NCBI GenBank assembly: GCA_963662465.1
Contig: OY759599.1
Coordinates: forward strand, 96,001-160,000
Direction: 5' to 3'
Source of the DNA: Desulfatiglandales bacterium
Lineage (GTDB): Bacteria > Desulfobacterota > DSM-4660 > Desulfatiglandales > Desulfatiglandaceae
DNA length: 64,000 nucleotides
Part shown: positions 36,006 to 60,526 of the stretch, piece after piece
How the letters are laid out: every line of letters starts with the position of its first letter
How positions within the stretch are numbered: the first letter of the stretch is position 1
Notes under the pieces: generated by a model
Seen by the model: the letters and a program-made list of their open reading frames with translations, nothing else
The model's database searches: none
Told to the model about the DNA's origin: nothing
Translations under genes and position numbers: made by a program

Positions 36006-36558
36006 CTTATTCACCTCCCGGAGCGAGTATCTTCTCTCTCTCAGGTCGTAATCTGTACCTGAGAGAGAGTAGTCCTGCTTGGTTTTTGTCCGCATCGGTT
36101 TTTATAAAAATGGATGTATTCATCCCGGGATATGTAAATTCTGAACACATACCGGAATCAAGGACAAAAACTGAAAGATTAAAAATGTAGCGTGGCGGTC
36201 ACTTCCGGCGTGACTAATCCGGGAGAACGGACCATTTAATTTCTATCCTGGATTAGGCACGCGAAGTGGGCATATTTATGCCACCTATCTTTATTTATCT
36301 TTCACAGGCTATCTGCCAAAGGGAGGGTTTGGGAGGGAAATAAGGTTCCCCTCTCAAATTAGAAGAAGAATTTGCCATAGGCGACCCCGTGGGGGGAAAG
36401 GTTTAAATAGGCGTTTGCGGTGAGCAAAGCGGAGCGTACTCCTTTTAAGCCTTTAGCCGTGAAGTGGCACAAATAGTCCACCTTTCGTTGAGGCGGAATC
36501 TATTGGATATCGTCAAGATAAAACCACTGCTTATTTTTGATTTAAATCATCCTAAGGT

Positions 36559-38238
36559 CAATACCCGTGAATGAATGATGTTCATGCTGCCTTTTTGTAC
36601 AGGACTTCCACATCTTGATTGAAATGGACGGTTTGCGATTTATCCTTGCTACGCTTTCGTTTGAAATTAGACATTTTTACTTTTATGACCCGTGGATTAC
36701 GTCTGGGTCTGCGTGGTCTATCAATTTTTGATTCTGCGATCATTTTAAGCAGAAAAGACCGCTTTTCTTTTCTCTTTCCCGTTATCATACTCATGAGTGG
36801 GGCACTTTGTATGATAAGATCGACAGTATCTACGAAACTGATCAACAAAGGATCACCGCCTTCCATGTTTGTTGCTTCTTGGATCAAAGAGCGAATCAGA
36901 TTGTATACGATCATTATTGAATACAATTCCTGTTCAACCAAATCACTGCGTTTACTACGAATTATGGTCGGCATTTGCCCTTTAAGAGTAGCGCACTGAT
37001 GAGTTTTAATTTCATCAAAAGCAATTTCTATATCCCAGCGCTTATGATAATGGGTGACAATCTCTTTTGCGCTGATATCTGAATCCAAGAGGCTTGTAAT
37101 TAAACGTACAGGTCGAAAACCTGGAATTTGGAAATGAATTACACGAACGATTATTTCAACCTTTTTCCATTTTTTCCGGCCGGTTTTCGGGTCTTCCGAT
37201 TCAACGATTTTCCCGTCAATTTTGCTCAGATAACTGCCGTCAAGCATTTGGGAACCAGGAATTGGTTTTAATTTTCCCGATTTTGCTATTTTCATAATGT
37301 GTTGAATCCCATTCTCGAACATATAATTGGCCAAATCAAATGAGTAAAATCCAGCATCAAAAAGCAATAATGCGCTTTCTATTGAACATCTTTTCAGGAT
37401 TTGAAACATCAAGGTTCTTTCGCCGGTCTTTTTTCCTTTGTAGGGAGCATAAGCAATATCTATAATTCGACGGGCAGTCAGACCCATTAATGCAACCAAT
37501 CTCATTTGCGGGAATGCGCCGTAGCCTCTTCCCGAGTTGTGTTTTCCAAACTTTTGCCAATTGCTTTCAGTGTCCGGCATTGTCAAGGAGGTACCATCAA
37601 ACATAGCGGTTCTCATTCCATGAAAATCAGGAGGTTCAATGTCTTTGAAAGTCGAAGCAAATCTGTAAAAAATGGTACGAAAGACGTCAATTCCCATTTT
37701 GGATCGAGCATGGCTAATCGTGCCTGCTTTTACAAATTTTCCATGGAAATCCAAATCCTTCCAGCGCATACCGGCGACCAGCCAGTTCAAAGTTTTGTCG
37801 TAATTCAAGTTTCGACGCAAAGCTAATGCAAAGCATAGCCAAACCAAAACAACCGGCGTCAGAATCGTGCCTTTCCTGTATTTGTCTTTCTGATGTTCTT
37901 TGAGAGCATCCTCAATGATCGGTTGAATAATTTTTTCAAAAGGAGCAAACTCAAAATCACTTTCAATTTTGGAAAAAATTTCTGAAACCCTTTTGATCAT
38001 GACTCTATCCTCGTCTAAGTTTTCTGATTAGTTGGTCTTTACATGAACCCATCAGAGTTTAAACGAGTATGAAGCGAATGTCCCGCTCCGTATTGCGGCA
38101 TTATTCGCTAAAATCAGCCGTATGGCCTTATTAGATCGTTTTTTCTCGCTTTTATATAGAATTTCTTTTTATTTTGACGATTATCTTTACTGAGGATTGG
38201 CCTCAGAAAAAGTGAAGCCAATTCATTCACGGGTATTG
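36559..38238 (-). mobile_element. Complete IS4-family insertion sequence, 1680 bp
   Basis: 18-bp perfect TIR caatacccgtgaatgaat; 10-bp target duplication atcctaaggt at 36549-36558 and 38239-38248. Confidence 0.95.
36582..38000 (-). CDS. IS4-family DDE transposase
   Basis: FDGTSL, FDAGF, YHKRWDIEIAFDEIK (YREK motif). Confidence 0.95.
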   Translation of the reverse strand: MIKRVSEIFSKIESDFEFAPFEKIIQPIIEDALKEHQKDKYRKGTILTPVVLVWLCFALALRRNLNYDKTLNWLVAGMRWKDLDFHGKFVKAGTISHARSKMGIDVFRTIFYRFASTFKDIEPPDFHGMRTAMFDGTSLTMPDTESNWQKFGKHNSGRGYGAFPQMRLVALMGLTARRIIDIAYAPYKGKKTGERTLMFQILKRCSIESALLLFDAGFYSFDLANYMFENGIQHIMKIAKSGKLKPIPGSQMLDGSYLSKIDGKIVESEDPKTGRKKWKKVEIIVRVIHFQIPGFRPVRLITSLLDSDISAKEIVTHYHKRWDIEIAFDEIKTHQCATLKGQMPTIIRSKRSDLVEQELYSIMIVYNLIRSLIQEATNMEGGDPLLISFVDTVDLIIQSAPLMSMITGKRKEKRSFLLKMIAESKIDRPRRPRRNPRVIKVKMSNFKRKRSKDKSQTVHFNQDVEVLYKKAA

Positions 38239-38489
38239 ATCCTAAGGTTAACCGGCCACCGAAAACAATCGACACATTTGATTCTTTTTGCCATAATTGT
38301 CGAGTTGGAGCTGACTCTGCATTTCACGTTGACTTTCATTTCTGTTCACAGGGCCATTACAATTGTATTCAGAAATTTGGTTCAAATCTTATGAATACCA
38401 TCTGTATTGTGAAAGGCGTTAGAGTTTCGGTATAATGCGAGTATCTTTAACCTCGCTTAGTTCGAATCCAAAGCCTCCACCTCACAAGC

Positions 38490-38517
38490 TTGACAAAATA
38501 TACTGGCGTGATATTCT
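38490..38517 (+). promoter_or_regulatory. Sigma70-like promoter upstream of the cassette array
   Basis: TTGACA-16 bp-TATTCT with TGn extension; palindrome ttcgcgaattgcgaa just downstream. Confidence 0.6.
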
Positions 38518-38547: not shown

Positions 38548-38655
38548 ATGGTCCTCAAGCCTCAAGATATCTTGGTTTTATTAAAGCTAATCTCTGTCGG
38601 GAAAAGAAACTGGTCTTACAACATCTTGTTAGGCGTGTGCCAGGCTGCGTCATGA
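38548..38655 (+). pseudogene. N-terminal remnant of an HTH protein, cut at the first cassette core site
   Basis: MVLKPQDILVLLKLISVGKRNWSYNIL with AGGAG RBS; sequence switches at GTTAGGC (38628). Confidence 0.6.
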
Positions 38656-38676
38656 TAGACTGATCCAAAGGCAACT

Positions 38677-39660
38677 ATGAGACTTGAAGCAGATATAGGT
38701 GGCCGTTACGAAGTGCTCTGCAATGAGACGGGCTACTTCGGCGGAAATGTCATACGTATTGGGGAGCCGAAGGTATGCCGTTTTTGCGGCGAGACAGACA
38801 CCACACTTTTCAAGAAGAAAGCACATACGTTTCCGGAGTCAATCGGAAACAAGTGGGTCTTCTCTCTCGACGAGTGCGATCGGTGCAACTTGCTGTTCGG
38901 AGACTACGAGGATGCTTTGGCAACATGCGTTAGGCCCTTCCTCACCCTCGGCGGAGTCAGAGGAAAGAAAGGAGTCCCTCAGCTCGGCCGGTCTAAGGGC
39001 CAGTCCTCAATCAAGCACATTTTTGAACAAGGAAAGCGAGGTCTTTCCCTGGCGGCGCAAGTTGAAGATCTCGACTCCGTGTTTCGCCCTGGTAGATCCG
39101 CTGGTGTCATTGAGGCTGATTTTATAGTCCCCCCGGCACGCTTCAGGCCTCGCCTAGCATACAAGGCGCTGGTGAAGATGGGTATCGCGCTTCTGCCTCG
39201 AGAGGAGCTGGGGAACTACTCGAAGCTAAGGACATGGCTGCAAACGAAGAACGATGAAGTCGACTTTCCCTCACTGGACGTACTGATGTCGTTCGTTTCA
39301 GTCGGAAACTCGCCAGACATGGTGTCCGGCACCCTCCTGCGACGGCTCGATCCGATAGACGTGGTGCCACACATTCTCTTTTTCCTCACCGCCGGATCTG
39401 TCTGCTTTCAGATCGACTTGCTTGCTGATGAATTGGACTCTCATATCCCTCACGTGGATCCTTGCCACGTAAAGATCCGTTGGACTTCAGTGCTTTTAGG
39501 CGAAAGTGATGACCCTCCCATCAAGCTGCGGTATTCAGATCCAACTTGCCTTGATTGGTCTGCCGCTGACCTTGCGGATCCTCCCGTTGAGAAGTTGAAG
39601 TTCGAATTCAACGTAGCGACGACCCACGCTCAGTGGACTCCCATCATGCGAGAGTCTTAG
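38677..39660 (+). CDS. HNH endonuclease-domain protein (cassette 1)
   Basis: CRFCG..AHTFPESIGN..ECDRCN. Confidence 0.8.
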   Translation: MRLEADIGGRYEVLCNETGYFGGNVIRIGEPKVCRFCGETDTTLFKKKAHTFPESIGNKWVFSLDECDRCNLLFGDYEDALATCVRPFLTLGGVRGKKGVPQLGRSKGQSSIKHIFEQGKRGLSLAAQVEDLDSVFRPGRSAGVIEADFIVPPARFRPRLAYKALVKMGIALLPREELGNYSKLRTWLQTKNDEVDFPSLDVLMSFVSVGNSPDMVSGTLLRRLDPIDVVPHILFFLTAGSVCFQIDLLADELDSHIPHVDPCHVKIRWTSVLLGESDDPPIKLRYSDPTCLDWSAADLADPPVEKLKFEFNVATTHAQWTPIMRES

Positions 39661-39679
39661 TTGAGCCGCGTGTCCATTC

Positions 39680-39748
39680 GCCTAACATCGGGCTGGACGA
39701 GGATGCGCTGGAAAACCGCCCGCCCACCTGTCAGCCCGGCCGTTCGGC
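39680..39748 (+). other. attC site 1 (69 bp)
   Basis: R'' GCCTAAC, 5 nt, L'' GCTGGACG with extra G, L' TGTCAGC, 6 nt, R' GTTCGGC. Confidence 0.88.
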
Positions 39749-39775
39749 TGCAGCACAAAGGAGGTTCAATGCACT

Positions 39776-40954
39776 ATGGACCCAGTAACAAAGGACATTC
39801 TATCCCAGCTCGACAATCTCTTGGCAGCCAGTAATCAATCGTGGCTGTTCGGTGCAGGAATCAGCCTTGATGCAGGGATTCCTCTGATGTGGCCGCTTAC
39901 TGAGCGAGTATTCACGAGGGCAAAAGACGATGGAGAACCGAGTGACATCAAAGTTCTCGAGTTTGTAAAGAGCCAGCTTTCTGACGATTCGCATATTGAG
40001 CACATCTTGAGTCAGCTCGGCGATCACCGCGCGATTGCCGACCGCTCAAAGGACAAGAATGTCGCGTTCGACGCCATTTCTCTCTCGGTGGATGACCTTG
40101 ATGGTCTTCACCAAAGGATTCTGACATGGATTGCTGAGACAATTCGATGGGGATACAAACCTGCTCAACCTGTGGGGATTCCTGAGGAAATTGGGACGTA
40201 TGAGAACCGTATTGTCGTTATCGACAACCATTCAGCATTCGTTTATGCCCTCTTCAATCGAAGCCAAGCAGGAATCGCAGAACGACGGAGAGCAGTCCGG
40301 CTATTTACCACCAACTACGATACCCTCCTTGAAGATGCTCTTGCACTTGGAGGCTTCTCGTGCTGGGATGGGTTCTCTGGCGGCGCGGTCGCGTATCGTA
40401 GCCATCGTTACGGCGACGAAGAGCCAAATCTCAGAGATCGTGCGCATGTAATCAAGCTTCACGGGTCGATCGACTGGCACTTAGGAGAAGATGACCGAGT
40501 CTGGCGAGTCCGCGACGGGGATCTCTATCCTAAGAAAGTTTCTCGGGTTCTAATCTACCCACAAGCCACAAAATACCTTGCGACTCAAAGGGATCCATTT
40601 GCGGCCCAATTTGATCTATTCCGGCGTTCACTTGGGGCACGGGAGGAGAATGTTCTCGCAACATGTGGATACAGCTTTGGGGACGAGCATATCAACCAGG
40701 AGATTGAACTGACGCTACAACGCCCGGAGAACAAAGCAACGGTTCTCGCCTTTGCTCAGAAGCTCAATCCGACTCTCGAAAGGTGGAGGACCGGTCCGTG
40801 GGGTAAACGTGTCTATGTCATTTCAGCGGATGGCTTGTATGTAGGTGCAGACGGACCTCAAGCGCCTCCGACTGCTGGAGCAAAACGAGATTGGTGGACG
40901 TTTTCTGGCGTGACCAAAATGCTAAACTGTGGAGCGGAGGCGTGTGCGCTATGA
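39776..40954 (+). CDS. SIR2-like protein (Sir2-HerA defence pair)
   Basis: LFGAGIS, FTTNYDTLLE, KLHGSIDW, GYSFGDEHIN. Confidence 0.92.
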   Translation: MDPVTKDILSQLDNLLAASNQSWLFGAGISLDAGIPLMWPLTERVFTRAKDDGEPSDIKVLEFVKSQLSDDSHIEHILSQLGDHRAIADRSKDKNVAFDAISLSVDDLDGLHQRILTWIAETIRWGYKPAQPVGIPEEIGTYENRIVVIDNHSAFVYALFNRSQAGIAERRRAVRLFTTNYDTLLEDALALGGFSCWDGFSGGAVAYRSHRYGDEEPNLRDRAHVIKLHGSIDWHLGEDDRVWRVRDGDLYPKKVSRVLIYPQATKYLATQRDPFAAQFDLFRRSLGAREENVLATCGYSFGDEHINQEIELTLQRPENKATVLAFAQKLNPTLERWRTGPWGKRVYVISADGLYVGADGPQAPPTAGAKRDWWTFSGVTKMLNCGAEACAL

Positions 40955-42837
40955 ATACGTTTGAGCTTATTTCGGACCTGAAGATTGGGCACATCGTTGA
41001 GGTGTCCGGAACTACCATTCGGGTAGAGTTATCAGGAGATGTCACGGAGCTCACCCGAACCTATGAGGGGAGAGTTTATCCCATCGGACAGATCGGTAGC
41101 ATCGTAAAAGTCCATTTTGGAAGACGCTTGGTCTTCGGTTTCGTGACGCTGCTAAGAATGAGGTCTGAGGAGCTTCTTGAGATTACAGAGCCCATTCCAC
41201 CCGATGCCGATCAGCGGCTCATGGAAGTCGAATTGTTTGCGGAAGGTATCTGGAACGCAGCAGACCAAAAACTCCGGTTCGTTCGAGGTGTGACGACCTA
41301 TCCGCTTCCCCGTCAAAGCGTGCATCTGCTCACTCGCGAGGAGACTACCCATATATACTCAGCGGCTGAGGGGCAGCAGAATGACGGCGAATATAGCCCG
41401 CTCGTTCCATTCGCTCATTACGTTGGAGCAGACAATGCCTTATGTCGGGCAAACGTAGATAAAATGCTGGGCATGCATTGCGCGGTTCTAGGTTCAACGG
41501 GTTCAGGAAAGTCTGGTGCGGTTGCTGCTTTGCTTCATAGCATGCTGGATCACACCCCTGAACCGGCCGCAGTCTGTCACCCGAGAATCCTCATCATTGA
41601 TCCTCATGGGGAATACGGCCACGCGTTCAAGGAACGTGCGATCGTTTATCGTGCTTACGACCCACTTGGAAACGAAGAGACGACCGGCTCTCCGATAAGC
41701 CTCCCCTATTGGCTCATGTCGGCGGACGAGATCAGGACCTTAGTGATTGGAAAAACTGAACAGGAAGCTACATCACAGAACAACATCATCTACAAGGCCA
41801 TCACCTATGCCCGAATGGTTGCCGCTGACCTTGTTGAGCCTTCCCCGACCGCACATGGCGGAGCGGCCCCTACCGATGGCTTAGACCATGATGCACCACG
41901 GCCAAAGGCAGGAGTTACGTTCGAACAGCTGATTGAGTTCGATCACGACAAGCCGCGACCGTTCAGCCTCCAGGAGTTTTACAACCACATTTTCTATTTG
42001 CAGGCAGCGCGCGTGCAGGGAGGCGCGCTTCAGAGCGTTACGGCTTCTGAATTCGCCTCAAAATTCAAATCCATCTTGGACAAGCTCTCAGTCTTGAGGC
42101 GTGATCCACGGATCCGTTTCATGATGCGGGAATGGAATGATCAGAGCCCTTCACTTGAGCATATTATCGCCCAGTTGGTCGGACAGATCCAAGGTGAGGG
42201 AGGCGTAGATCAAGACATTCGTATTTTGGATATTTCTGGTCTTCCAAATGAAGTGGCCGGTCCACTTGCTGCCATGTTGGCTCGTCTGTTGTTTCAGTAT
42301 AAGGTTTACCAGACAACGGAGGAAAGACGACGCGATCCAGTCGTCTTCGTGTGTGAAGAAGCTCACCGATATGTCCCCGACAGAGGCGAGGCCGAGTATG
42401 CAGCGGCTCAAACCGCAATCCGAAGGATAGCTCGTGAAGGGCGGAAATACGGTATTGGCCTCATGCTCGTGAGTCAGCGCCCCGCCGATATAGAGAGCAC
42501 TGTGATTTCGCAATGTGGCACATGGCTCGTCCTGCGGCTTACAAACGCAGCGGATCAACAGCACGTTTCTCGTTTCTTGCCAGATGGATTGTCAGGCATG
42601 ACGAAAGCACTGCCTAATCTCGCTCAGCAGGAGGCAATCTTCGTTGGCGAAGGCGCTGCGATGCCCGCTCGAGTTCGAATTCGAGATCTCGAAGATGACC
42701 AATTGCCGAAATCGGAGACGGCAAAATTCGCAAAGGGTTGGACCCTTGATCGGCTTACCGAAGCGGAGATTGCAGCAGTCGCTAACCGAATGGCCGGAGA
42801 AGTAATGCACACCCCAGGAGGACAAGAAAGCGTCTAA
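40951..42837 (+). CDS. herA: HerA-family ATPase (Sir2-HerA defence pair)
   Basis: HAS-barrel-like N-terminus, HCAVLGSTGSGKS, DPHGEY, EEAHRY, IAREGRKYG..SQRP; ATGA overlap with sir2. Confidence 0.92.
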   Translation: MNTFELISDLKIGHIVEVSGTTIRVELSGDVTELTRTYEGRVYPIGQIGSIVKVHFGRRLVFGFVTLLRMRSEELLEITEPIPPDADQRLMEVELFAEGIWNAADQKLRFVRGVTTYPLPRQSVHLLTREETTHIYSAAEGQQNDGEYSPLVPFAHYVGADNALCRANVDKMLGMHCAVLGSTGSGKSGAVAALLHSMLDHTPEPAAVCHPRILIIDPHGEYGHAFKERAIVYRAYDPLGNEETTGSPISLPYWLMSADEIRTLVIGKTEQEATSQNNIIYKAITYARMVAADLVEPSPTAHGGAAPTDGLDHDAPRPKAGVTFEQLIEFDHDKPRPFSLQEFYNHIFYLQAARVQGGALQSVTASEFASKFKSILDKLSVLRRDPRIRFMMREWNDQSPSLEHIIAQLVGQIQGEGGVDQDIRILDISGLPNEVAGPLAAMLARLLFQYKVYQTTEERRRDPVVFVCEEAHRYVPDRGEAEYAAAQTAIRRIAREGRKYGIGLMLVSQRPADIESTVISQCGTWLVLRLTNAADQQHVSRFLPDGLSGMTKALPNLAQQEAIFVGEGAAMPARVRIRDLEDDQLPKSETAKFAKGWTLDRLTEAEIAAVANRMAGEVMHTPGGQESV

Positions 42838-42884
42838 ACCATTTGATCTGAGTGCCCTTCGAGTTGGGTGGGAATCAGAGATGG

Positions 42885-42940
42885 GCCGAACGAATAAGGA
42901 CAGAGTGTGCGAAGCCACAATCTTATCCGTTTGGTTGGAC
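42885..42940 (+). other. attC site 2 (degenerate L boxes)
   Basis: R'' GCCGAAC complementary to GTTCGGC at the cassette start; imperfect stem; ends GTTGGAC. Confidence 0.65.
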
Positions 42941-43285
42941 AAGTCCAAAATCGGCACATAACTTGCAATTATCAAATATCTTTTTGAGGGCGATTATTGT
43001 AAAAACAACCTGGTATATGAAGCGGTTAGATGGGATTTGTAGGACTGTACGAATTTATCCATTGCGCTTAATTCTATACTGTTTTTGGATAAATTGCAAA
43101 TTCTTCTTAATGATTTTCATTATGCACTCTGGCTCATGTGCAGATACTGTGTGAGTGGCATTTTGCCATCCCGCTTTCAGCGAGAAGCCTGGAAAGCACC
43201 AAGGGAACGGTGGACGAGGGCGTTCCCAAAAGGACGTTTTTTCAAACTGAGAATTGTTGTTTTTCTTCTGCCGCGTAGCGGCTTC

Positions 43286-43345
43286 GTCCAACAATTTGCT
43301 GCACGGGAGCGCAAAAAGCCGCGCCCTGTGAGCAACACGTTCAAC
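43286..43345 (+). other. attC site 3 (60 bp)
   Basis: R'' GTCCAAC, 5 nt, L'' GCTGCACG, L' TGTGAGC, 5 nt, R' GTTCAAC. Confidence 0.85.
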
Positions 43346-43890
43346 AATTATTATCCTATTCATAAACCGGTATCGTGTCCGATAAATTGTTGATACAGAA
43401 TCTAAGCATGAGTGGTGTTAATTCCTTTTTATCTCCGATCTAGCGAATACTGATGTATGAGCTCATTTATCAAAATGATGGCACGGGGCTCTTTTAGTTC
43501 CTCATGTGCCCACAAACCCATTTCTATCGCAAAGCATGTGACAACGGTTTCTTTGACATCGAATTTTGTGATATCTGAACAGGGCTATATCAATTCCCCG
43601 TGGAAGGAAAAGCGGAAAGTTTAAATGAAAAACATTGGCTTCACGGATCCAGATTGGAGTTGTTTGCTGAGGGATTATTAGGAATCTTGACTGTGAAGTT
43701 ATTCGAAAAATCCTTTCCTGGAAGCTGATATATTCTGTGGCGAGCAGGAAACCTGAGCGCAGCGCACGGACTTTCGGGAGATTGTCCAACAGAACCCTGT
43801 GCCGTTCTTCAAAAACACAAGGATATTGACTCCGGTTGAAAGGTTCTCTTACGTAATTCCTGCAAAAAAATGGGGATCACTGTTCCACAG

Positions 43891-60441: not shown

Positions 60442-60499
60442 TCCGGGGATAGGTTCTGCAGACCGATAAGGCGTGATTACCTGTCTCGCTTTCCCCGGA
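60442..60499 (+). ncRNA. Structured element downstream of the integrase, possibly an int-alpA-type RNA motif
   Basis: Closing stem tccgggga/tccccgga with two inner hairpins; related partial copy at about 60365-60400. Confidence 0.35.
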
Positions 60500-60526
60500 T
60501 TAACAACAAGGCCGTGAGGGGCGGCT

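Follow-up and report, generated by a model that had tools for sequence, protein, structure and literature searches.

How many integron cassettes stand in an array that has no integrase, when every unit of it seems to begin and end with perfectly paired core sites? This question is raised by the window analysed here, i.e., a 64-kb stretch of contig OY759599.1 from a Desulfatiglandales bacterium with a complete genome of 8.16 Mb. A sequence-only reading of the window had described three successive cassettes, carrying an HNH nuclease gene, a Sir2-HerA operon, and a short third unit, respectively. We have verified the six 7-mers at the coordinates given for them, and each of the three core/inverse-core pairs is complementary at 7/7 positions. 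As a background, a complementary pair lying no more than 60 nt from both ends of an open reading frame (ORF) is found for 50 of the 7131 ORFs in the genome (0.7%, true cassettes counted). The three genes are also as described, with the domains HNH_5 (327 aa), SIR2_2 (392 aa), and HerA (628 aa).

The array is composed of two integron cassettes, the HNH unit and the Sir2-HerA unit, and not of three, and no integrase accompanies it. Judged from its two ends, the third unit is an inverted, gene-less derivative of an element that encodes a tyrosine recombinase and a transposase of the IS91 type (IS, insertion sequence). Overall, we consider it quite probable that two cassettes entered at a G|T dinucleotide within a likely antitoxin gene, and that the attC site of the second one was split by this gene-less copy, likely with a rolling-circle transposase acting in trans.

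For the attC sites we have used a covariance model of 26 aligned sites from this genome and related loci (85% of cells paired), with direct homologues of the window's own sites excluded from the training. A heuristic scanner produced many false positives and overlooked sites that were split or truncated, and the counts of attC sites therefore come from the covariance model. In the window the model gives eight hits, and the top two are at 43286-43345 ("attC3", plus strand, 40.5 bits, E 6e-7, a score possibly raised by training sites that have its loop motif) and at 39680-39748 ("attC1", plus strand, 26.2 bits, E 1e-3). The middle site at 42885-42940 ("attC2") has no plus-strand hit in the window, while its minus strand reaches 10.8 bits with an E of 3.3, i.e., the chance level. 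That is, the check by an attC model bears out the first and the last site but not the middle one.

The site closing the HNH unit, attC1, shows the R''-L''-L'-R' boxes, a fold of -18.6 kcal/mol (z -2.6) is obtained for its bottom strand, and homologous sites occur in relatives. The HNH unit has its core before the gene and its inverse core after it, with 7/7 complementarity. For the three sites the single-strand fold z-scores are -2.6, -0.9, and -1.2, respectively; these are modest values and decide little. An unpaired L-box base, described earlier as the extrahelical G, is indeed present in both attC1 and attC3, but the G is on the top strand and thus a C is on the bottom strand. In canonical attC sites, the extrahelical G sits on the bottom strand. 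An Rfam scan of the array region returned nothing at the gathering score or at E 1.

No intI gene exists in the window, as the sequence-only reading had stated, and the nearest intI-like match is ~0.3 Mb away. The search of the whole genome which that reading had proposed gives a different picture: five integron integrase matches lie above the TIGR02249 cut-off elsewhere, and the genome has complete integrons. At least 61 attC-like sites were found among 150 candidates scored, and many of them are in two large arrays. With two attC sites and no intI nearby, the array belongs to the clusters of attC sites lacking an integron integrase (CALINs). As a side observation, long integron integrases with an N-terminal extension (open frames of 407-490 aa) occur in this genome (L004, L005, L007) and in the integron of another locus (L025:1980-3299).

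The 401-bp insert and its element family

In the Sir2-HerA attC, the insert begins directly after the R'' box (42885-42891), and an R'' box is formed anew by the far end of the insert. Both 7-mers of the supposed third cassette turn out to be constant parts of a mobile element instead of integration scars. Likewise "attC2", which had been assigned to the Sir2-HerA cassette, is really one terminus of the inverted 401-bp insert, which divides the attC of this cassette; the body of that attC is "attC3". In relatives, the sequence to the right of "attC2" is conserved while that to the left is variable. Actually, in all five other Sir2-HerA cassette copies a normal attC directly follows R''; in two of them (L025 and L037), R'' lies at the same position, 47-48 nt past the stop codon. 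In another genome (G017) the Sir2-HerA attC body (43293-43345) stands behind a different R''. A second gene-less copy of 376 bp (G490; 66.5% identical over 421 nt) is in the attC of a toxin-antitoxin cassette.

A metagenome scan with the left arm of the insert has yielded 67 loci. Where at least 1.4 kb is available beyond the hairpin end (35 loci), 21 have an IS91-type transposase there, on the opposite strand and usually together with a tyrosine recombinase. The full units end after 2.3-2.5 kb in a palindrome and a 7-mer identical to those preceding "attC3" in the window. The two ends are unequal and have subterminal palindromes without terminal inverted repeats. One full-length relative (L079) encodes a Y2 HUH transposase (NF033538, 382 bits against a cut-off of 125; PF04986; PF14319), and the window copy is without any of these. 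The hairpin end has a 15-pair consensus hairpin, of which 5 pairs show compensatory changes across 16 copies, and it scores weakly as attC on the transposase strand only. The other, terIS-like end is kept in all the two-ended copies.

The recombinase of the element lacks the insertion typical of IntI (94 vs 133 residues between motifs) and stays below the TIGR02249 cut-off (84/265 bits on the first frame). Because the IntI insertion is lacking, it is unlikely to handle folded attC sites. At 15 of 17 metagenome loci (L079 and 14 others), the recombinase frame is broken by eight consecutive A, always at one point immediately ahead of the catalytic His-x-x-Arg; a programmed -1 frameshift is likely. 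The frame is continuous in an E. coli copy (L156).

We have further collected 15 distinct two-ended copies with a right flank of at least 50 nt. Four copies (L091, L096, L101, L109) were dropped for a shorter flank and L138 as a duplicate of L133, and the model scan was done without L116 and L087. In 10 of the 15, an attC body follows in array orientation (18.7-44 bits); these ten include the second gene-less copy and a copy in the aadA1 attC of an E. coli integron. Three two-ended copies are from genomes of the same genus. Among 60 flanks, the left side varies and the right side is conserved, and 37 of the 60 left flanks start with purine-pyrimidine, compared with 22% in the background. A gene in array orientation ends just before the insert in 29 of 51 cases, while 8 have a gene starting the other way, 2 have both, and 12 have neither. 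Near the start of the flanking gene, a perfect complementary core is found for 10 of the 29 genes with a located start.

The family is not confined to environmental DNA. On the E. coli plasmid NZ_LT985243, aadA1 and qacE-delta1 are separated by a full element, which interrupts the aadA1 attC behind its AAC, the very base used in the window. At its junctions nothing beyond AAC is repeated, where AAC is fixed by the search pattern and the strand for the target comparison is our choice. A head-to-tail junction is seen at one locus (L110), which would fit rolling-circle transposition via a single-stranded circle. At another (L129), one copy is placed like a normal cassette at R'.

Several further observations concern the hairpin end and related transposases. 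In L076, L087/L172, L124, and L134, the hairpin end is present without the rest of the element, as a perfect palindrome flanked at its base by AAC and GTT, and L087 and L103 share a left flank with the two forms. Such a lone palindrome is possibly an excision footprint. A decayed lone terIS-like end exists beside an unrelated gene at G000:C1:670587 (minus strand). Transposase-only cassettes of the IS91 type in normal orientation occur at G000:C1:4413000-4425000 and about ten other places, including eight tandem copies beside intI; the tandem copies are ~34% identical to the transposase of the element.

For the interior of the insert, a transposase or recombinase remnant was considered and rejected; a miniature inverted-repeat element is nested there instead. 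Free copies of this miniature element, with 14-bp terminal inverted repeats, are found in 6 of 208 relatives, and in a seventh it is nested in a gene-less copy. The miniature family measures 130-150 bp (L180, L183-L193) and is nested in both gene-less copies. An origin of the insert from IS1111 or a group II intron was ruled out too, given that the full-length relative encodes only a tyrosine recombinase and a Y2 transposase. No matching transposase exists in the genome, where the best match is 34%. Because of this, the insert is probably immobile now, and it likely came with the cassette or its helper transposase was lost.

Table 1. Features of the array and its surroundings, in window coordinates
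Feature	Position	Strand	Remarks
IS4-family insertion sequence	36558..38239	-	Pfam DDE_Tnp_1 and Nterm_IS4; 8-bp target duplication; outside the array
Sigma-70-like promoter	38490..38517	+	perfect -35, extended -10; belongs to the interrupted gene
5' gene stub, 27 codons	38548..38628	+	cut by the array; elsewhere a gene of ~180 aa preceding an AbiEii-type nucleotidyltransferase
First core site	38628..38634	+	secondary, attG-like; crossover G|T at 38628/38629, codon 27-28; G567 homology ends at 38629
HNH_5 nuclease gene	38677..39660	+	327 aa; cassette 1 (1,114 bp)
attC1	39680..39748	+	69 bp; ends cassette 1; final 7 bases are the core of cassette 2
SIR2 gene	39776..40954	+	392 aa; PADLOC SIR2 E 7e-149
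HerA gene	40951..42837	+	628 aa; start overlaps SIR2 stop; PADLOC HerA E 5e-141
Inverse core (R'') of the Sir2-HerA cassette	42885..42891	+	complements the core at 39742; separated by the insert from the attC body
Gene-less element copy	42892..43292	-	401 bp; inverted relative to the array; both ends match full-length elements of 2.3-2.5 kb
Hairpin end of the insert, oriIS-like	42892..42945	-	body of "attC2"; downstream of the transposase in full copies
Decayed miniature inverted-repeat element	43108..43259		152 bp; nested in the insert
Other end of the insert, terIS-like palindrome	43270..43292	-	upstream of the recombinase in full copies; last 7 bases rebuild the R'' box
Hybrid attC ("attC3")	43286..43345	+	R'' supplied by the insert, body (43293-43345) by the Sir2-HerA cassette; closes the 3,597-bp unit
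Last core and 110 nt	43339..43450	+	79% over 111 nt to DNA behind an attC in G006

The two cassettes and the interrupted gene

Attribution of the HNH gene and the Sir2-HerA operon to integron cassettes, as proposed before, is supported by the attC-model hits, the complementary cores, and the presence of Sir2-HerA cassettes in relatives. In the window pair, N180, D182, and H229 of SIR2 align with the catalytic N163, D165, and H212 of the solved protein (PDB 8w9l; PMC11472057), and the Walker A residue K187 of HerA aligns with K173 (PDB 8wiv; PMC11472057). The pair is predicted to be an anti-phage system. The scores against the NCBIfam anti-phage SIR2/HerA equivalogs miss the cut-offs (57/500, 259/850, and 168/800 bits), and because they are so far below, the pair is assigned on these profile scores to a separate subfamily.

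A scan of 185,579 species genomes has given 51 Sir2-HerA loci, of which a weak partial hit (L075) was dropped; 4 of the remaining 50 are cut by contig ends. Many of these loci are 76-93% identical and come from distant phyla. Five (L025, L033, L036, L037, and L068) carry the operon as a cassette, with a core 33-92 nt ahead of SIR2, an inverse core complementary at 6-7 of 7 positions, and a normal attC directly after HerA; the one in L025 belongs to a complete integron, whose intI is found 2 kb upstream. The training set of the model includes four of the five attC sites, so that the scores of these four hold by construction. At the other 45 loci no attC was found beside the operon. The window operon is 3.06 kb long and not shortened, compared with 3,029-3,092 nt in cassette copies and 3,008-3,131 nt in most others. 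Thus the 3.2-kb two-gene cassette of the sequence-only reading is genuine, while what exists now is a unit of 3,597 bp that includes the insert and is closed by a hybrid attC.

When 27 copies are placed on a DNA tree, four state changes must be assumed for the six cassette forms, and a single clade is rejected (approximately unbiased (AU) test, p 1.5e-5). Whether these changes reflect repeated gain or repeated loss of the cassette form cannot be told apart. The HerA protein tree, which is poorly resolved, groups the cassette forms otherwise than the DNA tree, and mosaic genes are possible because of this difference. A leader of ~27 nt is common to cassette and non-cassette copies (L025-L074), and one locus (L031) has a core at the unchanged distance but no attC after HerA. 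Several non-cassette copies come after what, judging from a motif, may be the terminal part of a type I restriction specificity gene.

The HNH protein has 97 homologues, which are no more than 54% identical aside from itself. Among 79 family members, four Cys, H50, N58, and N71 are invariant. The structure model has a confidence (pLDDT) of 94 and includes a C-terminal beta domain without a solved match. The model has no Foldseek match at E 0.001 and a best VIA Z of 4.5, and this shows neither a new nor a known fold. The protein has no sequence match in PDB, and its matches in the ESM Atlas are unnamed HNH_5 clusters only. Close relatives are absent from 400 genomes of the phylum, both by protein and by alignment. 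PADLOC 2023 recognises none of the 79 members at E 0.01, with newer systems being outside that library, and none of the relatives was seen in a defence locus among the loci examined. Most likely, this protein is a DNA nuclease that binds zinc and has a C-terminal domain for sensing or targeting. A putative defence role, proposed because the nuclease cassette adjoins Sir2-HerA, has in our judgement roughly equal chances of being right or wrong; overall, the HNH cassette is a reasonable yet ordinary defence candidate.

On the upstream side, the first core is a secondary site within an interrupted gene, which the sequence-only reading had missed. A copy in another genome (G567) is uninterrupted at the insertion point and is 96% identical over 167 nt, the match ending at the G|T of the core. 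The full-length gene is present in 5 of 201 genomes, and a plasmid homologue precedes an annotated AbiEii-type gene; this arrangement suggests that the interrupted gene is likely the antitoxin of a toxin-antitoxin pair. Neither an attC body nor an intI remnant (six frames across the IS4 site) is found upstream of the first core. The promoter of Table 1 is identical upstream of the intact gene in G567, and it likely stands in for the integron Pc promoter. The promoter scan alone is weak (9 promoter-like sites vs 4.7 in shuffles). A promoter-like site and a short inverted repeat ahead of the start codon are kept in relatives, and the repeat may be the operator of the antitoxin.

On the downstream side, the 110 nt past the last core match DNA behind an attC in G006, and because of this the array was formerly longer; by this similarity, the segment is likely the start of another, lost cassette. 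The array sits inside a mobile island at ~21000-61400, which contains RadC, an AAA ATPase, a HerA-like ATPase, a PD-(D/E)XK nuclease, Cdc6/Orc1, Replic_Relax, NrdD, and a phage-type integrase, together with an int-alpA RNA hit at 60442-60511. The nearby IS4 element has five further full copies and one split copy in the genome, which are >99% identical.

Proposed history and its alternatives

According to the above analyses, the array may have formed as follows. An IntI from the genome's own integrons would have integrated circular cassettes at a secondary site in the mobile island, leaving the junction seen today. The promoter of the interrupted gene would then transcribe the cassettes, and it may be derepressed, with the repressor-like product cut to 27 codons. 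As known from the family, and with the required residues in place, Sir2 and HerA should form an NADase-ATPase complex that depletes NAD+ upon phage infection. The original Sir2-HerA attC should have consisted of R'' 42885-42891 joined to the body 43293-43345. Into this site, right after the AAC of the R'' box and opposite to the array, the element would have inserted, as its position and ends indicate. Since the far end supplies a new R'', the attC is rebuilt, and IntI could still excise Sir2-HerA, now as 3,597 bp including the insert.

Several observations weigh against this history. Within the element family, 14 of the 35 loci have the hairpin end alone, without a transposase or a far end; 4 of the 15 two-ended copies have a weak attC or none behind them, and 1 has it the opposite way round. 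The search pattern fixed AAC at the left junction, and in each attC score the R'' portion comes from the end of the element itself. On the transposase strand, the joined ends of the element score like a weak attC (10.8-15.3 bits). At the insertion site, the empty site in G567 is GTC rather than the attG consensus GWT, and the genome lacks the 3' portion of the interrupted gene, therefore a later deletion is required. As for the HNH gene, none of its relatives is in a cassette at six distant viral loci, which have no attC, and the one plasmid locus lies between IS630 copies.

As to the enzyme that made the insertion, we lean towards the Y2 transposase and favour it over the host IntI acting on a weak attC-like junction, which we regard as rather doubtful. 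IntI could be the inserting enzyme because the joined ends resemble a weak attC. If so, the insert would be an inverted gene-less cassette, whose weak-attC circle was joined by the host IntI to the Sir2-HerA attC, at R'' and through its top strand. This is a tentative explanation with real points for it: once joined, the two ends form complementary 7-mers and have, on the transposase strand, boxes spaced 5/8 and 7/6 as in an attC, the junction lies at the AAC/GTT triplet that IntI uses, the L129 copy sits like a normal cassette at R', and the transposase-only relatives in the genome are ordinary cassettes. On the other hand, the ends score far lower than the 26-55 bits of real attC sites, the element is inverted in 10 of 11 attC-linked copies, which is the reverse of normal cassette insertion, and the unequal palindromic ends with an intact Y2 transposase suit the IS91 architecture.

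It is improbable that a complete integron once stood here and left the array as its remnant, with intI and attI deleted or cut off by the neighbouring IS4. In favour are the IS4 at a distance of 390 bp upstream, the rearrangement of the right side (the gene remainder is missing and there is a further cassette start at 43339), and bases ahead of the first core that look like an inverted core displaced by five bases (10.1 bits). However, six frames across the IS4 site show no intI remnant, and upstream of the array lies a gene from which the intact copy departs precisely at G|T. Finally, three cassettes of the same orientation with a merely atypical middle attC are very improbable: the three perfect core pairs and the usual distance of the middle site past the stop codon would suit them, but this site has no plus-strand model hit, the 60 flanks are variable on the left and conserved on the right, the two ends of the insert recur in the element that splits the aadA1 attC, and in all five other Sir2-HerA cassettes R'' leads directly into a normal attC.

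Known systems and significance

Insertions of few cassettes outside integrons have been published as CALINs, single attC sites lacking an integrase (SALINs), and attG insertions (bioRxiv 10.1101/2022.09.11.507474). In the available part of that report, they resemble the array here in having few cassettes at a genomic G|T without intI, in disrupting a gene, and in lying behind a resident promoter, and they differ from it since the empty site of our relative is GTC instead of GWT and the 3' part of the host gene is lost. Defence systems as integron cassettes have been published as well (bioRxiv 10.1101/2024.07.02.601686; bioRxiv 10.1101/2024.07.02.601719). These are anti-phage genes in cassettes of at most two genes, as here, while the window operon is 3.06 kb long and not shortened. 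The main texts of these two reports, as far as available, do not include Sir2 and HerA, and their supplementary system lists may include them. The window pair is like the Paenibacillus SIR2-HerA (PDB 8w9l/8wiv; PMC11472057, PMC13434337) in its adjacent genes, kept catalytic residues, and strong PADLOC matches, and unlike it in being far below the NCBIfam equivalog cut-offs.

For the IS91 family (IS91, IS801, IS1294), the target is described as CTTG, GTTC, or GTCC beside oriIS, without target duplication (bioRxiv 10.1101/2025.01.24.634351), and IS91 elements with IntI-related recombinases are known (bioRxiv 10.1101/542381). Going by the accessible description of the family, the parent element shares with it the Y2 transposase, the unequal ends with subterminal palindromes, the lack of terminal inverted repeats, and possibly a target-like end tetranucleotide, while its junction motif ends in AAC, it targets the R'' boxes of attC, and the window copy is gene-less (bioRxiv 10.1101/2025.01.24.634351). 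Elements targeting attC have been published, i.e., the IS1111 elements and the group IIC-attC introns (PMC3001079; PMC11089894). From the available passages, these too insert near the 5' end of attC and opposite to the array, but they use a DEDD transposase and a reverse transcriptase, respectively, whereas our element has a HUH transposase with a tyrosine recombinase and rebuilds R'' (PMC3001079; PMC11089894). Passing mentions of cassette structures exist for ISShvi3 beside attC (PMC9229058) and gcISKpn22 in In722 (PMC6262049). Those are IS91-like or IS-named units within cassette arrays, as here, and their accessible descriptions include neither an inverted insertion at R'' nor a gene-less form. 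In the open texts, i.e., outside subscription papers and bioRxiv supplements, we have found no account of Sir2-HerA as a cassette, nor of an IS91-type element inserting at the R'' of attC. The available parts of PMC7923331, PMC8876359, PMC3971601, and PMC13434337 contain nothing on either.

These results correct the reading of cassette arrays, in that an attC-like hairpin with perfect core pairs may be the end of an inverted insertion element. In addition, members of the element family occur in environmental bacteria as well as in a class 1 integron, and a full-size 3-kb two-gene system, predicted to deplete NAD, travels as a cassette across phyla without being shortened. The two gene-less copies, in which ~100 and 35 terminal bases define the element, offer a direct route to test the targeting of attC hairpins by HUH enzymes.

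More broadly, and with the balance for and against standing about level, the insert may mark a third kind of attC parasite, in which a HUH transposase recognises attC in its folded hairpin form, integrates in reverse at R'', and restores the site, while the Sir2-HerA operon passes in and out of the cassette form at least four times among copies that are 76-95% alike. If this is true, the element and its gene-less derivatives of ~400 bp would ride on cassettes without crippling them, and the 401 bases would be a complete minimal substrate. The Sir2-HerA copies, which are found both in and out of cassettes, bear on the question of cassette origin, and on the same condition they would constitute a natural series on the making and loss of cassettes.

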